A DNA stretch of 64,000 nucleotides from Octopus vulgaris (lineage: Eukaryota). The notes beneath the pieces are model-generated. The model saw only the letters and a list, made by a program, of their open reading frames with translations. It did no database searches and was not told the DNA's origin. A program made the translations under genes and the position numbers. Below, piece after piece: positions 2,346-62,960 of this stretch; position 1 is the first letter of the stretch; each line of letters starts with the position of its first letter. The stretch spans positions 32,612,001 to 32,676,000 of the forward strand of contig OX597830.1 in assembly GCA_951406725.2 (NCBI GenBank). The letters are read 5' to 3'.

Positions 2346-2376
2346 AACTATTATTGTTATTATTATTATTATCATT

Positions 2377-2871
2377 GAGTGAGAGAGCAGTTCATGCCAT
2401 CAAAGTGACACTGGGGTAAAATATACGAAGCCCAATATACCCATCATGACTACCTGTCTGATAAAGGTACACCAGGCACATGCATCACAACCATATGTGC
2501 GCGACATGGTGATCTCATATCAAGATAAACAGCACATGACCTTGCAGGTGGGGCCCAGTTAGAATTTTCTTCAGGTTGGGTAGCCCATCCCGCTCAAACG
2601 GTCCCTGAATAAGGGTTGTTTAAGGATGTTGAAAGAACCACCCATGTTTCCAGAGGTGAACTATTCAAACCCCAAAGAATCCCTCTCAACACATGGCTAT
2701 GATGCTCCCCCACTACTTCTGCTCGTGATCAGAGATGCACATATCATCAGCCACTAAGGGACATGCTCAACTGGTTAAGGTCAAACAACTGACAAGCAAA
2801 TCTGTGGTATTGAGCAGAATATTTGCTGTAGCCCATCTTTTATACCAAGACAAAACAATGTACATGATAAC

Positions 2872-3569: not shown

Positions 3570-3765
3570 ACACACACACAGACATACACACAAATATTCT
3601 TCATGTACTCATATACATGCAAGTGAAAATCACCGACATACACAAACTAACACTTTCATTCACACACACACGTTTGCACATACATAAACATACATGTACA
3701 CACACATCACCAAACTTACATACAAACATACATACACATTTCAATGTAAATATAATGGATAAGTA

Positions 3766-4165
3766 GGCGTAGGAGTGGCTGTGTGGGGTAAGTAGCTTGC
3801 TTACAAACTACATGGTTCCTGGTTCAGTCCCACTGTGCAGTACCTTGGGCAAGTGTCTTCTACTATAGCCTCGAGCTGACCAAAGCCTTGTGAGTGGATT
3901 TGGAGATGGAAACTGAAAGAAGCCCATCGTATATATGTATATGTATGTGCATGTATATGTTTGTGTGTCTGTGTTTGTCACTCCAACATCACTTGACAAC
4001 TGATGCTGGTGTGTTTACGTATCCGTAACTTAGCGGTTTTGCAAAAGAGAACAATAGAATAAGTACTAGGCTTACAAAAGGTAAGTCCTGGGGTCGATGT
4101 GCTCGACTAAAGGCAGTGCTCCAGCATGGCCACAGTCAAATGACTGAAACAAATAAAAGAGTAAA
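3766..4165 (+). mobile_element. tRNA-derived SINE-A, full length with internal (TA/TG)n
   Basis: A-box TGGCTGTGTGG, B-box GGTTCAGTCCC, body GGGCAAGTGTCTTCTACTATAGCC, tail ACTGAAACAAATAAAAGAG; more than 20 copies or halves in the window. Confidence 0.9.
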
Positions 4166-4449
4166 AAAGTGATTACAAAAGCAGCAATATTAATACCATT
4201 TTAGTTGACTGTGTTGAAATTTCTGTATTGGTTCATGGAAGTATTTAGGAATATGTGTGTATGTGTGTGTGTGTGTGTGTGTGTGTTTGTTTGTATTCAT
4301 GTGTGAATGCGTGTGTATGTCTGAGTTGTTGTTACTATTATTGTTGCTGTTGCTGTTTATGTGATGCTGGTTCAGTCTTAGTAAATGACACCTGGAGCAT
4401 GTGCCTTTTGCTATGGCATCAGGCTGACCAAACATTAGAAGCATGATTC

Positions 4450-9050: not shown

Positions 9051-9124
9051 CAAATGCTTTCACAATTATTTTAAATAGAATTCCTAATGATCTTTGATTA
9101 TGAAAACATATTCTTTAATTCTTT

Positions 9125-9312
9125 TATTTTTTTACTTGTTTCAGTCATTTGACTGCGGCCATGCTGGAGCACCGCTTTTAGTCAAACAAATCACCCCCAG
9201 GACCTATTCTTTGTAAGCCTAGTGCATATCTATCAGTCACTTTTGCTGAACCACTAAGTTATGGGTACATAAACACACCAACATATATACATATACATAT
9301 GTATATATTATA

Positions 9313-9356
<44 letters not shown>

Positions 9357-9369
9357 ATATATATGTATG

Positions 9370-9418
<49 letters not shown>

Positions 9419-9572
9419 TGGGCTTCTTTCAGTTTCCATCTACCAAATCCACTCACAAGGCCTTGGTTGGCCTGAAGCTATAGTAGAAGACACTCGCCCA
9501 AGGTACCATGCAGTGGGACTGAACCCGGAACCATGTGGTTGGTAAGCAAGCTACTTACCACACAGCCACTCC
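9125..9572 (-). mobile_element. SINE-A, full length
   Basis: Reverse complement of 3766-4165 with an expanded (TA)n core. Confidence 0.9.
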
Positions 9573-10159
9573 TAATCAAATGGCTATGAAGGTCTATCCG
9601 AGCAAAATTGGAACCAAAAATGGTCCTTAAGTAAAGAACAGTTGAGAAACACTGTCCTAAATCAAGTTCAGTGAAATCATTGATGACAGAACAATCTGCA
9701 GGATTTTTCCTGTTTCTTCAGCTTCATGTTGGAGAATGCTATCATCATATTTTAATAGACGAATGAGTGAGACAGCAGCTTGTTGGAAAATGAGTAAAAA
9801 CTGTTTTTGATTGAATCTGAGTTTCTTAATAACCCAGCCTTCCTCTGTAGCCCTTTGGCCCTTGATATCGGCTTTCGTACTGGTCTGTAAATGATATTTG
9901 CTTTTCAGTTCAGATGTCCTTATTGTTTCGAGCGTGAATGTTCCCGATAGTAATCAACTTCCCACATATTCATGAAGGGTTGGATTAAAAGCCATAGAGG
10001 TCCTATGCACTTATAAGATTTTGGTGCCCCCATCATCATCATCATCATCATCATCATAGTCATTGTCATCGTTGTCGTCATCATTGTTGTCGTCACCATC
10101 ATAATCATCATCGTTGTCGTCATCGTCATCATCGTCATCATCATCACCATCATCATCAT

Positions 10160-10340
10160 CATTTATCGTCTGTTTCCATGCTGGCATGGGTTGGATGGTT
10201 TGACAGGAGCTGGCCAGGCAGAAGATAGCACCAAGTTTTGCTATCTGTTTTTGGCATGCTTTTTATGGTTGGATACCCTTTTTACATGGCACCAGCACAG
10301 TTGTGGTTAGTTTTGGTATGGTTCTTTTTATTGTGGGATG
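10160..10340 (-). mobile_element. Family D (RTE 3' UTR-like) fragment with (GAT)n tail
   Basis: TTTCCATGCTGGCATGGGTTGGATGG matches the reverse complement of 42620-42660. Confidence 0.65.
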
Positions 10341-10349
10341 GATTACTCG

Positions 10350-10549
10350 ACCAGAAGAAAATACTAACTGGGCCCCACCTGCAAGGTCATGTGCTGTTTA
10401 TCTTGATATGAGATCACCATGTCGTGCACACATGGTTGTGATGCAGGTGCCTAGTGTACCCTTATCAGACAGGTAGTCATGATGGGTGTACTGGGCTTCG
10501 TATATTTTACCCCAGTGTCACTCTGATGGCATTCACTACTCTCTCACTC
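10350..10549 (+). mobile_element. Family C 3' portion ending in (AAT)n
   Basis: Reverse complement of 2377-2570. Confidence 0.7.
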
Positions 10550-10580
10550 AATAATAATAGTAATAATAATAATGATAATA

Positions 10581-10740
10581 ACATCGAAAAATACCTTAGG
10601 AATGAGAACCCAGGTTCAAAATTTCCCCAAGACACCTGATGAAGGCTGGAGGGTATATCAGCCGAAACATTGTGTTAAGAAACAAAATGAGGACAAATAT
10701 CCGTCAAATGTAAATAATGTAAATATTGTAAATAATGTAC
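10581..10740 (+). mobile_element. Orphan tail of hammerhead-bearing SINE (family H)
   Basis: Near-identical to 20095-20255. Confidence 0.85.
10631..10676 (+). ncRNA. Minimal type I hammerhead ribozyme motif
   Basis: GACAC-CTGATGA-A-GGCTG-gagggtatat-CAGCC-GAAA-CA-TT-GTGTT: intact core, helix I GACAC/GTGTT, helix II GGCTG/CAGCC. Confidence 0.7.
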
Positions 10741-19611: not shown

Positions 19612-19902
19612 TATTTTCAAGACTCAAATTATTTATCTCTTCCTTAAAAAAACAATGATAATGTGGTTTAGCAGACATATCCAAACACGCAAAATATATA
19701 TATATTAAAAGTCAGGGTACAAAATGTATCTACAGTTCTATATTTAAGAGATGAAGAATTATATTACATTATTTACATTATTTACATTTGACGGATATTT
19801 GTCCTCATCTTCTTTGTTGTTAATACAACATTTCGGTTGATATAACCACCAGCCTTCATCAGGTGTCTTGGGGAAATTTCGAACCTGGGTTTTCATTCCT
19901 AT

Positions 19903-19977
19903 GGTCATATGGCATAGTGATTAAGAGCTCAGGCTACTAGCTCTAAGATTCCGAGTTCGATTCCAGGCAGTGACCTG
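19903..19977 (+). promoter_or_regulatory. tRNA-derived head with Pol III A and B boxes
   Basis: TGGCATAGTGA (19910-19920) and GAGTTCGATTC (19953-19963); consensus with other copies gives an anticodon arm GGG-CTACTAA-CCC. Confidence 0.75.
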
Positions 19978-19993
19978 AATAGTAATAATAATA

Positions 19994-20034
<41 letters not shown>

Positions 20035-20051
20035 CATGGGGACGACGACGT

Positions 20052-20082
<31 letters not shown>

Positions 20083-20142
20083 AATAATAATAACATCAAA
20101 AAATACCTTAGGAATGAGAACCCAGGTTTGAAATTTCCCCAA

Positions 20143-20188
20143 GACACCTGATGAAGGCAGGAGGGTATATCAGCCGAAACGTTGTGTT
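20143..20188 (+). ncRNA. Minimal type I hammerhead ribozyme motif
   Basis: GACAC-CTGATGA-A-GGCAG-loop-CAGCC-GAAA-CG-TT-GTGTT; mirror copy on the minus strand at ~19822-19867. Confidence 0.7.
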
Positions 20189-20384
20189 AACAAGAAACAA
20201 ATTGAGGACAAATATCCATCAAATGTAAATAATGTAAATAATGTAAATAATGCACATAATTCCTCATCTCTTAAATATAGAACTGTACAAAATGTATCTG
20301 TTTGTTTGAAAGAAGAATGACTTGTATCTCTCATTATATGCAAACTCACATTGAGAATAACAATTACATTTAGTAAAACATAGC

Positions 20385-25430: not shown

Positions 25431-25533
25431 TATACGAAGAACTAGTGCCATGTAAAAAGCACCTGGTACAATCTTGTGTCTGTCTTTGCACCACCCCCAC
25501 CACCCATCGCCATTTGACAACCAGTATTGGTGT

Positions 25534-25691
25534 ACATTATTTACATTATTTACATTTGACAGATATTTGTCATCTTGTTTGTTGTGAACACAACATTTCG
25601 GCTGATATACCCTCCAGCCTTCTTCAGTTGTCTTGGGGTTCTCATTCCTAAGGTATTTTTTGATGTTGTTGTTATTATTATTATTATTATT

Positions 25692-25730
<39 letters not shown>

Positions 25731-25915
25731 CAGGTTACTGCTTGGAATTGAACTCGGAATCTTGGGGTTAGTAACCCATGCTCTTAACCACTATGGCCTA
25801 TGCCCGTGGCCATATGGGGTAGTGGTTAACAACAAACAAGATGAGGACAAATATCCGTCAAATGTAAATAATGTAAATAATGTACATAGTTCCTCATCTC
25901 TTAAAAATAGAACTG
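25534..25915. mobile_element. Family H inverted pair inserted into a SINE-A 3' half
   Basis: (-) tail 25534-25665, microsatellite, (-) head 25731-25805, (+) head stub 25808-25829 fused to (+) tail end; TSD CAGTA(T/C)TGGTGT at 25522-25533 and 25916-25927. Confidence 0.85.
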
Positions 25916-26360
25916 CAGTACTGGTGTGTTTACATGCTCTGGGAATTGGCAGTTTGGCAGAGGAGACTGATAGAATAAGTAACAGGCTTAAAAGACAGAA
26001 AGACAATCCCAAAAAAGCACATAAGTACTGGGTGGGGGTCAATTTATCTAATGAGAAATTCTTCAAGCCAGTACCCTCGTATCACTGCAATCTGATGACT
26101 GAAATATGTAAAAGTTAAAAGCAGCAATAAAAATAATAACGAAGAAATTTTCTTTAAGAAAAAAAATTAAGAAAAGGAGAAAAAAGAAAAAAGAACCACA
26201 CCTCCACCTCTTGTTATGGAATCACATGTTTCCCTGTGGAATCTGAATATTTCTCCATGGTGGGAAATTCCTTGACAAATCTACAACAAAGAACATTTAT
26301 GTACTGAGAAACATATGTATATGTCTTTATGTATATAGTTAAACATATACGAATGCATGC

Positions 26361-36715: not shown

Positions 36716-37129
36716 GGCCACAGTGAAATGATTGAAACAAATAAAAGAATAAAAAAATGTATGAATCATCATCATCAGCATCATTATTATCATCATTTAA
36801 TGTCAGTTGCCCATGCTGGCATGGTTCGGACAGTTTGACTGTGGCTGTTAAGGTGGAAGGCTGCACCAGACTCCAGTCTGATTTGGTATGGTTTTCTAGA
36901 ATATATAGTACAATACAAAAGAAAACAATAATGAGTGTATAAAATCATAAATGACAGAGGAATTGTTTGATGAAATTTCATTTAACAATAAGAAAATTCT
37001 AACGTCATGACAAATTGTTTCGTAACTTAAAAATGTAACTAATTTACATTATTATTTTCAATCATAAATAAATTACTTACATGTCTGCTTTAATACAAAA
37101 TACAAAGTTCCTTGAAAATAATGCATATA

Positions 37130-37950
37130 GGTGTAGGAGTGGCTGTATGGTTGGTAGCTTGCTTATGAACCACATAGTTCTGGGTTCAGTCCCACTGCAT
37201 GGTACCTTGGGCAAGTGTCTTCTACTATAGCCTCGGGCCAACCAAAGCCTTGTGAGTGGATTTGGTAGACGGAAACTGAAAGAAGCCCGTCATATATATT
37301 TTTTTCTTTTATTTTTTCTTTTACATGTTTCAGTCATTTGACTGCGGCCATGCTGGAGCACCACCTTTTAATCGAGCAAACTCGACCCCAGGATTTATTC
37401 TTTGTAAGCCCAGTACTTATTCTATCGGTCTCTTTTGCCGAACAGCTAAGTGACGGGGACATAAACACACCAGCATCAGTTGTCAAGCAATGCTAGGAGG
37501 ACAAACACAGACACACAATCATACACGCACACATATATATATATACATATATACGACAGGCTTCTTTCAGTTTCCGTCTACCAAATCCACTCACAAGGCT
37601 TTGATCGGCCCAAGGCTATAGTAGAAGACACTTGCCCAAGGTGCCATGCAGTGGGACTGAACCCGGAACCATGTGGTTAGTAAGCAAGCTACTTACCACA
37701 CAGCCACTCCTATGTATATATATATATATGTGTGTATGTATGTGTGTGTTTGTGTGTGTGTTTGTGCCCATAACATTGCTTGATAACTGATGCTGGTGTG
37801 TTTGCATCCCTGTAACTTAGCGGTTTAGCAAAAGAGACCGCTAGAATAAGTAATAGGCTTACAAAGAATATGTCCTGGGGTCTATTTGCTCAACTAAAGG
37901 CAGTACTCCAGCATGGCCACAGTCAAATGGCTGAAACAAGTAAAAGAGTA
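37130..37950. mobile_element. SINE-A (-, ~37310-37712) nested in the microsatellite core of a SINE-A (+)
   Basis: (+) 5' half 37130-37290 and (+) 3' half 37745-37950 bracket a full (-) copy. Confidence 0.85.
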
Positions 37951-41721: not shown

Positions 41722-41891
41722 GATAGATGTAAATGTCAAACAATGAGAATAAGTGTTCAAGACTGCATTGGTAGAAAAAAATCTTTATTTGTGTATTAAG
41801 GGTACCATTGGTTCCATGTTATGAAAATATCTCAACATCTTAACAATTTTTTCAATTTGATCACATGGAGGAATGGGTGTTTGTCTCCATT

Positions 41892-41927
<36 letters not shown>

Positions 41928-41944
41928 TATATATACATACATAC

Positions 41945-42019
<75 letters not shown>

Positions 42020-42023
<4 letters not shown>

Positions 42024-42680
42024 GTATGCTGTGCGTGAGAAGACCCGGCAAGACTAGTGAAGCCATAACCCGTGGCCCCTACCTGGGACGTAGTCAGTCC
42101 ACCTGTGCATACCTTCCTTCTTGTGACACTTGTGAAGACCTGTTGAGGCAAGTGAGAATCGAATCGTATCGAATCAAATCGAACCAAATCAAAATAGATG
42201 AACATCAATGGAATTTGTATCCTTGTGGTACCAGTGCCGGTGGCACATAAGAAAACCATCCGAACGTGACCGTAGCCAGTACCGCAATGACTGGCCTCCG
42301 TGCTGAGGGCACGTAACAAACACCATCCGAGCGTGGCCGTCCGCCAGCCTCGTCTGGCACCTGTGTCGGTGACACATAAGAAAACACCATCCGAGCGTGG
42401 CCGTCTGCCAGCCTCGTCTGGCACCTGTGTCGGTGGCACATAAAAAACACCATCCGAGCGTGGCCGTCTGCCAGCCTCGTCTGGCACCTGTGTCGGTGGC
42501 ACATAAAATCACCCACTACACTCTCGGAGTGGTTGGCGTTAGGAAGGGCATCCAGCTGTAGAAACACTGCCACATCTGACTGGCCTGGTGCAGCCTTCGG
42601 GCTTCCCAGACCCCAGTTGAACCGTCCAACCCATGCTAGCATGGAAAGCGGACGTTAAACGATGATGATGATGATGATGA
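42020..42680 (+). mobile_element. RTE LINE 3' end (family D), young CpG-rich copy
   Basis: ORF-end [11 protein letters not shown], long UTR, (GAT)n tail. Confidence 0.7.
42321..42510 (+). repeat. 63-64 bp tandem repeat, 3 copies
   Basis: Units start CACCATCCGAGCGTGGCCGT at 42321, 42385 and 42448. Confidence 0.95.
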
Positions 42681-43549: not shown

Positions 43550-43946
43550 ACTCTTTTACTCTTTACTCTTTTACTTGTTTCAGTCATTTGACTGTGGCCA
43601 TGCTGGAGCCCCGCATTTTTTAGTCAAGCAAATTGACCCCAGGTCTTATTCTTTGTAAGCCCAGTACTTATTCTATCGGTCTCTTTGGCCAAACCGCTAA
43701 GTTACGTGGATGTAAACACACCAGTATTGGTTGTCAAGCGATGTTTGAGGGACAAACACAAAACATATACACACATACATATACACGACAGGCTTCTATC
43801 AGTTTCCATCTACCAAATCCACTCACAAGGCTTTGGTCAGCCTGAGGCTATAGTAGAAGACACTTGCCCAAGGTGCCACACAGTGGGACTGAACCTGGGA
43901 CCATGTGGTTGGTAAGCAAGCTACTTACCACACAGCCACTCCTACG

Positions 43947-43981
<35 letters not shown>

Positions 43982-47615: not shown

Positions 47616-48331
47616 CGAAGGGAAGTCAGAAATTATAGGTACTTTTGCCATAATACAACTCTGTTATTGTGACACTGCCTTCTGTGCATGTGTGCTTATA
47701 GTTGGTACTATTGTAGTCACGGGATCAAAGTTTGAGCCTGATTGAACCATTTTTCATTCTGGCTTTGCAGTGTAAGCATGACCACCTCACTAGCAATGTG
47801 CATCAAAAGAGAACGAAGAGCAGTGATCTGGTTTCTCTGGAAAAGGGGGTGTATGATCAACAGTGCAAGATACAGTGCTTTGCTGGCCAACAAACTGAAG
47901 GCAGCAATTCACACCAAATGCCAAAGCCTGTTGTTGAAGAAAGTTTTGTTGTTGCATGACAATGCACGCCCACACACGGCTGCTCTGGCTGTTGAAACCA
48001 TTAACCAATTGGGTTTTGAAGGTGCTGGAACACCCTGCCTACAGCCCAGATCTTGCCTCTTCCAACTATTATATCTTTGAAGTGCTCAAAGAGGGTTTAC
48101 GAGATCGTCGATTTCCTGTGGATGAAGATGTGAAGGAAGTGGGACATAACTGGTTGCACGACCAACTGGGAACCTTCCTCTTGGAGAGAATACACAGGCT
48201 TGTGAACTGATGGACCAAGTGCATCAGAAAGAAAGGAGGCTATATAGAAAAATGCCGTAGTTGTTTATCCCCTGCTTTTTTGTAAATACATTGGTAAAAC
48301 AAGAATGTGTATAATTTTTGACTCTCCCTTG
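47616..48331 (+). pseudogene. Mariner element with internal deletion
   Basis: TA flanks, TIRs containing GAGTCA.AAATTATA-like sequence; RAVIWFLW, LLLHDNARPH, HPAYSPDLASSNY, WTKCI..GGYIEK. Confidence 0.9.
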
Positions 48332-49321: not shown

Positions 49322-49447
49322 TGATAATAACAATAATAATAATAGATAAACATATATACATAATATCTTCGCTTGAACCATTTTCTTTCATTCTGGTGGA
49401 TCAAAAAACAAAAACACAAACGGACAGAATCTCTGATATATATATAT

Positions 49448-49830
49448 TCTCTTTTACTCTTTTATTTGTTTCAGTCATTTGACTGTGGCCATGCTGGAGC
49501 ATCGCCTTTAGTCGAGCAACTCGACCCCGGGACTTATTCTTTGTAAGCCCAGTACTTATTCTATCGGTCTCTTTTGCCGAACCGCTAAGTGACGGGGACA
49601 TAAACGCACCAGCATCGGTTGTCAAGCAATGCTAGACACACAAACACACACACACACATATATATATATACATATATACGACGGGCTTCTTTCAGTTTCC
49701 GTCTACCAAATCCACTCACAAGGCTTTGGTCGGCCCGAGGCTATAGTAGAAGACACTTGCCCAAGGTGCTGCGCAGTGGGACTGAACCCGGAACCATGTG
49801 GTTGGTAAGCAAGCTACTTACCACACAGCC
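49448..49830 (-). mobile_element. SINE-A, young full-length copy
   Basis: CpG-intact match to SINE-A. Confidence 0.9.
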
Positions 49831-49837
49831 ACATATA

Positions 49838-49896
<59 letters not shown>

Positions 49897-51085: not shown

Positions 51086-51557
51086 TAAAACTAGGCTCTT
51101 TACACATTCCAGACTTAATCCAAATTTTGCTTGAATCAACTTGGATTATCCTTTTACTAGGATTAATAAAATAAACGCCAGTCAAATTCTCAAGTCGATA
51201 ACATTGCCCAGGGATTCTCAACAGAGGCTCATACAACCCATTGGGGTCCACGACTGATTTTGTTGTTAGAATTTATCTTTTATCTTTGACTTGCTTCAAT
51301 CATTAGACCGCAGCCAGGCTGGGGCACTGCCTTGAAGAACTTCTAGTCAAATGAATCGATCCCACTACTAATTTATTTTTGTTTTTGGTAAGCCTGGTAC
51401 TTGTTCTGTTGGTTCTTTCACCAAATTGCTAAGCTATGGGGATGTAAACACACCAACATCAGTTGTCAAGTGGTACAAACACAGACACACATATACAGGG
51501 TACAATGGGTAAATTGTTGCTATTTTATATTTTTAATTATCCATATGTGCATTGTTT

Positions 51558-51711
51558 ACATTATTTACATTATTTACATTCGGCGGGTATTTGCCCTCAT
51601 CTTGCTTGTTGTTAAAACAACATTTCAGCTGATATACCCTCCAGCCTTCATCAGGTGTCTTGGGGAAATTTCGAACCTAGGTTCTCATTCCTAAGGTATT
51701 TTTCGATGTTA

Positions 51712-51771
<60 letters not shown>

Positions 51772-52392
51772 TATGTTTGACTTTTGCTTTATATTTGTAT
51801 AAGTTGGCTCCAAGCTCACCCAGAGACCTCAAGAGACAACAGGTTGGAAGTTCGTGTTGTTGTTATGCCTAATGTGCCATATATTTGGTTTTGTATTTAG
51901 TGTTGTACTAGTGAATGTCTAAAAAAAAAAACGAAAATTATATTTGTTTTAAAACTTGAGATTACATAGAAAGTATTTTGCGTAGGATATGAGCAATTCC
52001 CATAAGCACTATCTTTTGAATTTCTGCCATTTTGGGGTTTCCTGATATCTGAGTTAGGTAGCGATCAGTCCCTTTTGCTATCATTCCCAGGGCACCTATG
52101 GCAACAGGTATTGTTTTAGTCTTCAGGTTCCACATTTTGCAAGTTTCTATTTCAAGATCTTTATATTTGCTCAGTTTTTGGTAGGTCTTGACAGATACGT
52201 TTATATCGATTGGGACAGTCATATCAATGAGAAGACATTTTCTTTGTTTGAAGTCTTTCATTATGATGTCTGGCCTATTTGCATCTATCTTCTTGTCAGT
52301 TTGAATGGGGAAGTTCCAGAGGAGTGAGATGTGGTCATTTTCAAGCACTGGATGTGGTTTGTGTTCCCACCAGTTTATTATTATTATTATTA

Positions 52393-52482
<90 letters not shown>

Positions 52483-52643
52483 TCACTGCCTGGAATCGAA
52501 CTTGGATTCGTGGGGTTAGTAGTCTGTGCTCTAAACCACTGATCCATATGCCCATGCAGTGACCTGAACAATAACAATAACAACAACAACAATAATAATA
52601 ATAATAATAACAACAACATCGAAAAGTACCTTAATAAAGTACC

Positions 52644-52702
<59 letters not shown>

Positions 52703-52907
52703 TGATGATGATCAACAATAAAAATAACATTGAAAAATACCTTAGGAATGAGAACCCAGGTTTGAAATTTCCCCAAGACACCTGAAGAAGGCTGGCAGGT
52801 ATGTCAGCCAAAACGTGTTAACAACAAACAAGATGAGGACAAATATCCGTTAAATGTAAATAATGTAAATAATGTCCCTAATTCCTCATCTCTTAAATAT
52901 AGAACTG
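51558..52907. mobile_element. Family H inverted pair
   Basis: (-) tail 51558-51710, (-) head 52479-52553, (+) head end 52556-52567, (+) tail 52727-52907; perfect TSD TATGTGCATTGTTT at 51544-51557 and 52908-52921. Confidence 0.85.
51771..52374 (-). pseudogene. 5'-truncated R4/Dong-clade LINE: restriction-like endonuclease domain and 3' UTR
   Basis: ORF 51962-52348 LWNFPIQTD..ANRPDI..CLLIDMTVP..QKLSKYKDL..IPVAIGALG is an RLE PD-(D/E)xK domain; (TTA)n on both sides. Confidence 0.85.
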
Positions 52908-53777
52908 TATGTGCATTGTTTGTTTTTGATTTTGTTGGCTACACAGTATAGTAGGGTCAGTTGGGCACCATCTGTGAGTAAAAGAGCTCCACGATACAAT
53001 TCACTCTGCTAAATATTTGGAAACTATGCTGTACTACTTGGCATTTGCACCAGAAGCTTCAATATAAACATGTACCAATATGAACATGTACCAATACGAA
53101 CATGTACCAATTTGAACAGGTACCCAGTCTACATCATGGTGTTTGGAGTGATCACCATTGATGGTGAGGTGATGCCTCCATTCATCTTTCCACATGGCCT
53201 CAGACTCAACACAAAGTCCTACATTAAGTGCCTGGTGGAAGTAGGGTTGCTCTGGGTCAAGAGAATGTCTGCTGGAAGACCCTATGCCTGGCAACAGGAC
53301 TCTGCACGATGCCACACAAGCAAGAGAACCCAGTCACGGCTGTCAGACAATTTCTGCGACCATATCACCCCTAACATCTAGCAACCTAACTCTCTACACT
53401 GCAACCCCCTTGATTATTATGTATGGGGCACAGTTGAGTGAGAGACCAACAAAAGTCCTTGTAACAACAATGATGAACTGAAGGCAAAGATTATGGCAGC
53501 ATTCACCAACTTAAACAAGGAGACCACCAGAAGAATTGCAAGAGTTTCTGAAGTCGTCTGGAGGCCATGGTTGAAGCCAATGGCGATTTTATTAAATAAA
53601 TTTACTCTTTAGTATTTCAAGATATTTTTATGTAATTTTGGTAAATATATCTGTTAAAATGAGATGTCAGTGTCATTTTCATTGTTTGCATAATTTAGAC
53701 AACTAGTTTATTCATTGCACCCTGTGTGTATATGTATATATATATATATGGAGAGAGAGGGAGAGGGGGAGAGAGAG

Positions 53778-56524: not shown

Positions 56525-56934
56525 AATACCTGTACATCATCTCCAAACCTTCTAATATATATATATATGATTTTTATATACATATATATATATATGTGAT
56601 ATATATTTACAGGTTTGGCTAATGTGGTTACAATGTCTACTGTGAAACCAAATGATTCAGGCTTCATTTCTGCTGTTTGTCATTCACAAAAGCTTCAAAA
56701 TATAATCAAAACTGTGTCAAAAACATTTGTTTGTTGTCTTTGTGGTTATTTAGCTCCAGCTTGGCTCTGAATGAGGAGGCCTCTTCCAGCAATGAAGAAT
56801 TCTTCTCTTCTTATATATCTGGGAAATTATAGTTCAGGTATTTAACGTGGCCAGTTTTTACCAAATTAATGGGGTGGATAAAAAAAGTCTATATATTTCT
56901 GAGACAAAGAATTTTTAGATAATGTATTAGTTGG

Positions 56935-57285
56935 AGTTATTATGGCTTTTAGTATGTTTCATCTGCATATACTCCAGCCTTCTTCAGGTGTCTTCTGGTT
57001 CACCTTAGCGCCTTGATCGGTATTGAAGTCAGAACTTCTAGATGACTGCACTGCATTAAGCAGTGCCTTAATCAACTACGCTATTTCTGTAGGCAGAGTC
57101 AGAATAAATTTTTAAAACTTAGTGGATAAAGGTATTGAAATGCATTGCAGTCATCTAGGGGCACTGAGTTCAATCCCAGGTAAGGCACTAAGGTAAATCA
57201 CAAGACACCTGAAAAAGGTGGGGGGGGGGGACATAAAACAGCTAAAACCTAGTGAAAATAACAATGAAGGTGAGGACACTATTTT
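56935..57285. mobile_element. Second tRNA-headed, hammerhead-motif SINE family (H2), head-to-head pair
   Basis: (-) arm ~56935-57085 and (+) arm ~57117-57285 share TGCAGTCATCTAG, a GAGTTCAATCCC-like B-box, AAGGC.CTAAGGT and AAGACACCTGAA. Confidence 0.7.
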
Positions 57286-57329
57286 GACCATTACATAGAA
57301 TAGAAGAGTGGAATTTGAGTAAGATTAGT

Positions 57330-62804: not shown

Positions 62805-62957
62805 TTTTTTTTAGACATCCACCAGTACAACACAAAAAACAACCAAATATATGGCACACTAGGCATAACAAAAACGTGAACTTCCAACCTGTTGTCTCTT
62901 GAGGTCTCCAGGTGAGACTTGGAGCCAACTTGTACAAATATAAAGCAAAAGTCAAAC

Positions 62958-62960
<3 letters not shown>
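62805..62960 (+). mobile_element. R4/Dong 3' UTR fragment in (TAA)n
   Basis: Reverse complement of 51772-51925; TAA repeats on both sides. Confidence 0.85.

Follow-up and report, generated by a model that had tools for sequence, protein, structure and literature searches.

SINEs normally depend on LINEs for their copying and end in a LINE-type simple-repeat tail. Insertions of Penelope-like elements (PLEs), as characterised in the relevant sections of Craig et al. (PMC8557442), carry an inverted, 5'-truncated copy at their 5' end and a tail of 30-40 nt, which is often present at one end only. In the case of PAc, the protein starts reverse transcription in vitro at two internal sites downstream of the hammerhead, the tail corresponds to the stretch between these two starts, and the hammerhead itself is protein-assisted and dispensable for insertion (Frangieh et al., PMC11167929). 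The minimal hammerheads of PLEs are defined by a short helix I, a long helix II, an unpaired base between positions 9 and 10.1 and a palindromic 15.2-16.2; cleavage was not seen in the monomer and was low in the dimer, and pairs of motifs 100-700 bp apart, one on each strand, were noted (Cervera and de la Pena 2014, PMC4209133). Short non-autonomous Penelope elements are described in butterflies (PMC6685494). In an annotation of Octopus vulgaris, Penelope-like sequence amounts to 6.83% and the unclassified SINE families number in the hundreds; hammerheads are unmentioned in its relevant text (PMC13282606).

The window analysed here is a stretch of 64,000 nucleotides from Octopus vulgaris (contig OX597830.1, positions 32,612,001 to 32,676,000), and it contains several copies of a dispersed, non-coding repeat in which an (AAY)n linker connects a tRNA-like head to a hammerhead-bearing PLE end. 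The element is roughly 300 bases in size, with a main arm of 270-390 nt, and is very abundant. We give a probability of about 60% to the reading that this repeat is SINE-like, probably transcribed by Pol III and likely copied by the reverse transcriptase-endonuclease of PLEs, not by the LINEs that normally copy such repeats. The first-pass annotation of this DNA identified the hammerhead correctly and overlooked that the element has a tRNA-like head and a tail and is flanked by target duplications.

The motif at 20143-20188 (+) is a minimal type I hammerhead of the PLE type, as indicated by sequence reading, a descriptor, folding and the consensus of PMC4209133, and all the parts reported for it in the first-pass annotation are present. 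Helix I is formed by GACAC (20143-20147) and GTGTT (20184-20188), the core CTGATGA occupies 20148-20154 and is followed by an extra A at 20155, and helix II (20156-20161 with 20170-20175) leads into GAAA (20176-20179) and C-G-T-T (20180-20183), with the predicted cut after 20183. One helix II pair is broken in this copy by the A at 20159, a position at which at least 97/100 of the reads or contig depth carry T. In the established hammerhead numbering, the CUGANGA and GAAA boxes and U16.1-H17 are present as in PLE minimal hammerheads, the G10.1-C11.1 pair is GC in five young copies and GU in one, and 15.2-16.2 is a palindromic C-G in the consensus, with no stable helix III. All six copies listed earlier were found, at 10631 (+), 19822-19867 (-), 20143 (+), 25587-25632 (-), 51614-51659 (-) and 52777 (+), and the extra A after A9 recurs in every one of them. 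The reported CpG decay is also real, the C-G at 15.2-16.2 being altered in 4 of 11 cells. None of the six young copies is simultaneously intact in the core, both helices and the palindrome; core and palindrome are complete in the family consensus.

The ribozyme itself is ordinary and belongs to a known class, the PLE minimal hammerhead, because the extra base after A9, the C-G palindrome and U17 all belong to the published PLE consensus. Fig. S3 of PMC4209133 contains rows from Ciona and Tetraodon with the identical CUGAUGAA...GAAA-C-G-U-U layout; an octopus row and any mention of tRNA are absent from the accessible part of that supplement. The expectation that such a PLE-type hammerhead acts only as a dimer accords with the traits given in PMC4209133. 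The palindrome AACGUU, proposed earlier as helix III, is indeed there; its 6-bp pairing (-3.5 kcal/mol by folding) is not the catalytically useful dimer helix, because A14 and U17 would be tied up in it. The useful helix III is predicted to be the 4-bp A15.1-C-G-U16.1, at -1.7 kcal/mol.

A strict minimal-hammerhead descriptor matched twice in the window (10636 and 20148) and not once in any of 60 dinucleotide shuffles, and a looser pattern gave six matches, four of them family copies, against a mean expectation of 1.14. BLAST with the region identified one family with seven pieces in the window, six of which carry a hammerhead, and returned one diverged match as well, and a profile search added a second diverged copy; the diverged pair lies at approximately 56948-56992 (-) and 57204-57250 (+) (nhmmer E-values 2e-4 and 1e-6). 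Rfam matched no hammerhead in 19700-20320 at E-values up to 10, and local Rfam and ARAGORN scans matched neither a hammerhead nor a tRNA. Over the whole window, the Rfam matches (best 150 of 327) were of miRNA type and driven by microsatellites. The hammerhead pattern was found in none of the metagenome and viral contigs scanned. A 20-nt pattern hit four metagenome and two prokaryote loci, which we rejected as chance, the likeness being confined to 18-25 nt.

Folding of the monomer predicts that G5-G8 pair with C15.2-U17 (P 0.58-0.69), and because the monomer is predicted to fold inactive, the hammerhead would cut rarely, or only with a protein or a second RNA. Neighbouring copies lie on opposite strands, and a whole head-to-head unit folds as one hairpin of -277 kcal/mol; because its arms form this single long hairpin, the ribozyme fold is predicted to be abolished, with helices I and II at a probability of 0.0. 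Core, helices and flanks all diverge from the majority by 3-5% (3/76, 3/63, 3/72, 9/262 and 16/386) and loop II by 5/48, and helices I and II of the window copies show no excess of conservation. Two-sided changes were found in none of the 11 helix pairs among the six copies, a comparison with little power in a young, neutrally decaying family. The hammerhead copies in the window are thus under neutral decay, which says little about the master copy.

Three insertions in the window follow one plan: an inverted, shortened copy stands head-to-head with an arm composed of the head, (AAY)n, the hammerhead and an optional 32-nt tail. Unit 1 (19717-20299, arms on both strands, delimited by its flanks and direct repeats) begins with the left target-site duplication GTACAAAATGTATCT (19717-19731, +), which is identical at 15/15 positions to the right one (20285-20299, +), although up to 3 nt of it may belong to the tail. 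Its inverted 5'-truncated arm (19732-19902, -), with the hammerhead at 19822-19867, the hairpin region and the 32-nt tail, joins directly to the first base of the tRNA-like head (19903-19977, +), in which the A/B scan placed the A box at 19910-19920 and the B box at 19955-19963. The linker, read from the sequence as a variable microsatellite (AAT)n(GAT)n...(AAC)n(AAT)n, spans 19978-20094 (+), and a 48-nt segment conserved among the copies (20095-20142, +) leads to the hammerhead. Downstream of it, folding and reads define an A-rich region (20189-20253, +) that comprises the 5' arm of a 9-bp hairpin, 9-nt repeats and a short 3' end, and copy comparison and loose read ends define the optional 32-nt tail (20254-20285, +). 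The 3' arm of the hairpin lies within the tail, and the hairpin is part of the minimum-free-energy structure of three of the four folded copies and absent from that of the 20143 copy, in which the end of the tail lies 132 nt from the start of helix II.

Unit 2 (25522-25927) is bounded by a 12-nt duplication with one mismatch. Its main arm (-), placed by reading the flanks, has the head at 25805-25731, (AAC/AAT)n and the hammerhead at 25632-25587, without a tail, and its inverted arm (25808-25916, sequence reading) consists of the first 22 nt of the head, GTTAA, the part behind the hammerhead and the tail. Unit 3 (51544-52921) has a 14/14 duplication and a tailless main arm (-) with the head at 52553-52479, an (AAT)n interrupted by a LINE fragment, and the hammerhead at 51659-51614; its inverted arm (52556-52908, sequence reading) holds the last 11 nt of the head, (AAY)n, the hammerhead at 52777 and the tail. 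Within the microsatellite of this inverted arm, 52609-52645 is a short aborted duplicate of the start of the segment. The outer ends of the three units therefore match at 15/15, 11/12 and 14/14 nt, whereas a match of 12 or more nt with one mismatch was reached by 7 of 1500 randomly drawn window pairs, which were not required to lie at junctions. Across the window, (AAY)n occupies the linker place in every arm that reaches that far, the 32-nt tail is present on four of seven 3' ends (units 2 and 3 each carry it at a single end), and an inverted truncated arm stands at the 5' end of all three head-bearing young units as well as of an older pair. This inverted partner arm and the optional tail, here of 32 nt, constitute the insertion signature of PLEs. 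Target-site duplications accompany it in all three young units, as in PLE insertions, and each 3' end is of PLE type, either the short one or the tail; a LINE-type 3' tail is absent.

The older head-to-head pair (56890-57300) is without (AAY)n; its tRNA-like head, which is either a different one or far diverged, joins about 25 nt upstream of a decayed, related hammerhead. No recognisable target duplication was found around it, and its likeness to the young family beyond the hammerhead, taken alone, does not exceed background (scores 26-27). The pair suggests a second family or an earlier form, and since it repeats the plan with another head, we count it in favour of a SINE-like element moved by PLEs. 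A stronger version, in which a true SINE family with a PLE partner combines a tRNA promoter with a PLE priming stem-loop, was amplified about 10^5-fold in this animal lineage and was formed at least twice with different heads, is put forward tentatively, at slightly less than even odds.

Several other sequences were noted in the window. The fragment within the (AAT)n linker of unit 3 (51771-52375, -) is a later insertion of a 5'-truncated non-LTR retrotransposon, recognised by protein likeness as a C-terminal endonuclease region with its 3' UTR; it shares 55-62% identity (E-values to 1e-50) with the C-termini of proteins of about 1200 aa that bear a reverse transcriptase (PF00078), and has a weak R2 match (E 0.2). 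A second copy of the 3' UTR, at 62813-62960 (+), has no hammerhead behind it. Both are non-LTR 3' fragments with a restriction-like endonuclease and (AAT)n at the end, which we take to be R4/Dong-like. ORF fragments at 47742-48080 (-) and 53013-53381 (+) look by eye like transposase remnants, presumably of Tc1/mariner type, and 41891-42654 contains tandem repeats of 60-130 nt in a repeat-derived stretch.

All three full heads of the window (19903-19977, +; 25731-25805, -; 52479-52553, -) lie within units 1-3. Scanned with the established box motifs, each carries an A and a B box 34 nt apart, the B box being without mismatch, and 2-4 chance matches are found per shuffled window. Since Rfam and ARAGORN do not call the head a tRNA, we term it tRNA-like and name no parent tRNA. 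The young heads fold no better than shuffles (z 0.0, 0.7 and -1.6), and the head profile weakly matches the heads of another abundant repeat (best E 0.002). The latter is a very abundant SINE-like family of about 400 nt with an internal (AT/GT)n tract, located at 3744-4170, 9105-9577, 37125-37712, 43551-43958, 49442-49851 and many more places.

Every full head leads to a hammerhead segment in the same orientation, two directly and one across the later LINE insertion, and in all three units the first G of the head is also the first base of the main arm. Both inverted arms that reach far enough carry head sequence (the last 11 nt in unit 3 and the first 22 nt in unit 2), so the head and the hammerhead part were copied from one template. 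This link is based on three insertions in one 64-kb window, the mapping of reads having skipped the microsatellite at 19973-20106. These arrangements bear on the possibility that two unrelated repeats have met, namely a tRNA SINE that ends in (AAT)n and truncated PLE ends that land in such tracts. Such landings would fit the microsatellite bias of PLEs (PMC8557442) and the cutting of PAc at ATT (PMC11167929), as far as the relevant text of both papers goes. They would also fit the headless copy at 10583-10737 (+; hammerhead 10631-10676, no tail), which follows another repeat at its (AAT)n terminus and for which no target duplication was found. This copy counts against our preferred reading, as does, on the side of two separate repeats, a read depth of the head below that of the hammerhead. 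However, the duplications enclose the head, and the inverted arms abut its 5' end and themselves carry its sequence. Four of the five hammerhead segments behind (AAY)n have head sequence upstream, among 19 such tracts in the window, and no head of the three stands alone, even though 14 of the 19 tracts have no hammerhead segment directly behind them. We therefore consider a chance meeting of two repeats quite improbable. A non-coding repeat ending in (AAT)n was noted at 2349-2870 (-), with (AAT)n on both sides, and at 10335-10550 (+), directly upstream of the headless copy.

Public reads extend these observations to the family. In fourteen runs from five organisms, 0.41-0.72 of the sampled words were present; six RNA runs with word shares of 0.04-0.09 were left out of the mapping, which placed one raw RNA run and three DNA contig sets (three organisms) onto 19890-20330 at 82% likeness. 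Summed depth, which is not copy number, reaches 5-8 million across most of the hammerhead region, whereas the unique flank has about 100 or less. This excess of about 10^5-fold, found in three species, fits the seven pieces in 64 kb. The loose ends fall into two clusters, 20235-20245 and 20285-20287, where the agreement of the flanks is mostly 0.4-0.5, and those at 20285 and 20287 recur in all four runs, which marks two alternative 3' ends. At the other end, the depth of the head climbs from 19905 in RNA and in the DNA of three species. The head reaches about 0.1-1.2 million against 5-8 million for the hammerhead in DNA, and about 280-630 against 1500-1750 per direction in RNA; because the depth of the head is well below that of the hammerhead, most hammerhead segments may lack a head.

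The two 3' ends, the tail and the hairpin reproduce the geometry of PAc, from which we infer that Pol III transcribes the element and that a PLE copies this RNA in trans. Transcription would start at the first G of the head and read beyond the tail. The PLE protein would then bind the stem-loop downstream of the hammerhead and nick AT-rich DNA, and reverse transcription would start internally at one of two sites 32 nt apart, so that the tail is present or absent, as in PAc; the first of these starts would correspond to the short 3' end within 20189-20253 and the second to the end of the tail. A second priming on the other strand would lay down the inverted arm. In such a cycle the uncut RNA would serve as the template, with the hammerhead a probable passenger within the captured PLE end. 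The partner PLE was not among the window ORFs as judged by eye, and no ORF with a reverse transcriptase and GIY-YIG adjoins any copy in the window. The element contains no T4 run, an absence shared by 860 of 2000 shuffles and thus not significant, and the copy at 51712 does contain one.

The precise 5' end would also be produced if the copies were solo pseudo-LTRs of an autonomous PLE whose pLTR begins with a tRNA-like segment that it has captured; a SINE lineage of its own would then not exist. Initiation inside the element, near the 5' end of its mRNA, would yield short copies that extend from the start site as far as the tail. In PAc, reverse transcription begins just behind the hammerhead, 111-118 nt into the ORF (PMC11167929, relevant text), which would lead to the same 5' end, and a 48-codon open frame spans the hammerhead and the region downstream of it in the 10583 copy. 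However, the 48-codon peptide has no homologue among longer proteins, which is weak evidence, a search for a PLE N-terminus found none, and by eye no PLE ORF is present in the window. The microsatellite inside the unit is variable, and the older pair has another head at another distance. Pol III cannot read a 3-kb AT-rich ORF, so an autonomous element of this type would need a second promoter. We judge this origin unlikely and continue to prefer a SINE-like element moved by PLEs.

The first-pass annotation had suggested that cleavage could define the RNA end or permit circularisation, which would correspond to a retrozyme-like element with a hammerhead that acts as a dimer, fixes the RNA ends and produces a circular intermediate. 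The complete core and palindrome of the family consensus are in its favour, and non-LTR retrozymes are proposed as PLE derivatives in the relevant part of 10.64898/2026.07.22.740005. In unit 2, moreover, the internally deleted inverted arm (25808-25830) has the head joined about 2 nt from the predicted cut via a 5-nt microhomology, which resembles a template jump off a cut RNA; this single case is a possible trace of such a jump, and the microhomology explains the joint equally well. The element, however, ends away from the cut, about 50-100 nt downstream and 280 nt upstream of it, so the idea that cleavage defines the RNA end is not supported. Nor is circularisation: the 64-kb window is without a head-to-tail tandem or dimer of hammerhead units, and no RNA reads lie at the 15 joints listed, 112 more existing. 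Nowhere in the RNA run do starts or ends pile up; with an unstranded library, this and the empty joints are weak tests. Retrozymes, according to the relevant text of PMC7229834, have canonical hammerheads in tandem repeats. Taken together, a retrozyme-like cycle appears very improbable here.

Because the RNA library is unstranded and 73/100 of the mapped reads continue into unlike sequence, most of the RNA signal is probably read-through. A>G changes occur at 25 places in the RNA and at 6 in the DNA, and T>C changes at 17 and 4-5. Position 20133 is changed in 262/1417 RNA reads against 0.3% of the DNA depth, 20172 in helix II in 258/1643 against 0.1%, and 19914 in about 68/100 against 5-14/100; A>G and T>C are also far commoner in RNA at 20132-20134. 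The excess looks like heavy A-to-I editing of fold-back RNA, the RNA and DNA coming from different individuals. The head-to-head units are predicted to form long double-stranded RNA, and the family shows this editing-like signature.

If the preferred reading is true, the partners of tRNA-headed short elements would widen to include PLEs. The element would be a natural minimal substrate, with about 190 nt of PLE end, for the PLE cycle of internal priming, tail and inverted arm, and its sequence would mark the minimal RNA signal by which PLEs copy cargo in trans. It also sharpens the question of why PLEs retain a hammerhead that is dispensable for insertion. Cutting would separate the promoter from the priming site, so whether young subfamilies have kept or lost the core would tell a structural from a catalytic role. 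On the basis of three insertions in one window and the family-wide data on ends, the carrier is probably a PLE-driven SINE-like family. No tRNA-headed, PLE-mobilised element is described in the relevant text of the literature searched, a search to which Repbase, Dfam, SINEBase and the bioRxiv supplements were external, and the family is abundant enough that it may already have a database entry under some name. A 2024 account of small-RNA-derived mobile elements lacks the word Penelope in its relevant text (PMC10886601), and the corresponding parts of PMC6962438 and PMC8967140 hold nothing specific to the element.

Comparisons with known systems indicate which features are shared and which are particular to this element. 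With PLE minimal hammerheads it shares the core, the extra base between 9 and 10.1, G10.1-C11.1, a 5-bp helix I, a 6-bp helix II, the C-G palindrome and U17, as well as opposite-strand copies 100-700 bp apart (PMC4209133, relevant text), but no PLE ORF was seen adjoining the copies here and a tRNA-like head lies upstream. Non-LTR retrozymes (PMC7229834; 10.64898/2026.07.22.740005) and MRC1 of Chlamydomonas (PMC8557442) are likewise non-coding, have a PLE end and are thought to be moved by PLEs, but they form head-to-tail tandems or pLTRs, and a tRNA head is not described in the relevant text. The schistosome SINE-like repeats SM-alpha and Sj-alpha also place a Pol III promoter of tRNA type before a hammerhead; theirs is canonical and cuts itself out of tandem multimers (PMC6765202, relevant text), whereas the octopus element has a minimal hammerhead, dispersed head-to-head units and ends away from the cut. 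Endonuclease-bearing PLEs and PAc (Poseidon, Anolis) share the inverted truncated 5' arm, the optional 30-40 nt tail, the target duplication and a hammerhead about 100-130 nt upstream of the 3' ends, as described in the relevant parts of PMC8557442 and PMC11167929, but theirs is a randomly truncated ORF, in contrast to the fixed 5' start at a tRNA-like head. The tRNA-derived SINEs, including those of octopus, share the 5' A/B-box head, the short non-coding body, the very high copy number and a borrowed 3' end; unlike them, the element described here carries a PLE-type 3' end with the insertion signature of PLEs, and its microsatellite is internal.
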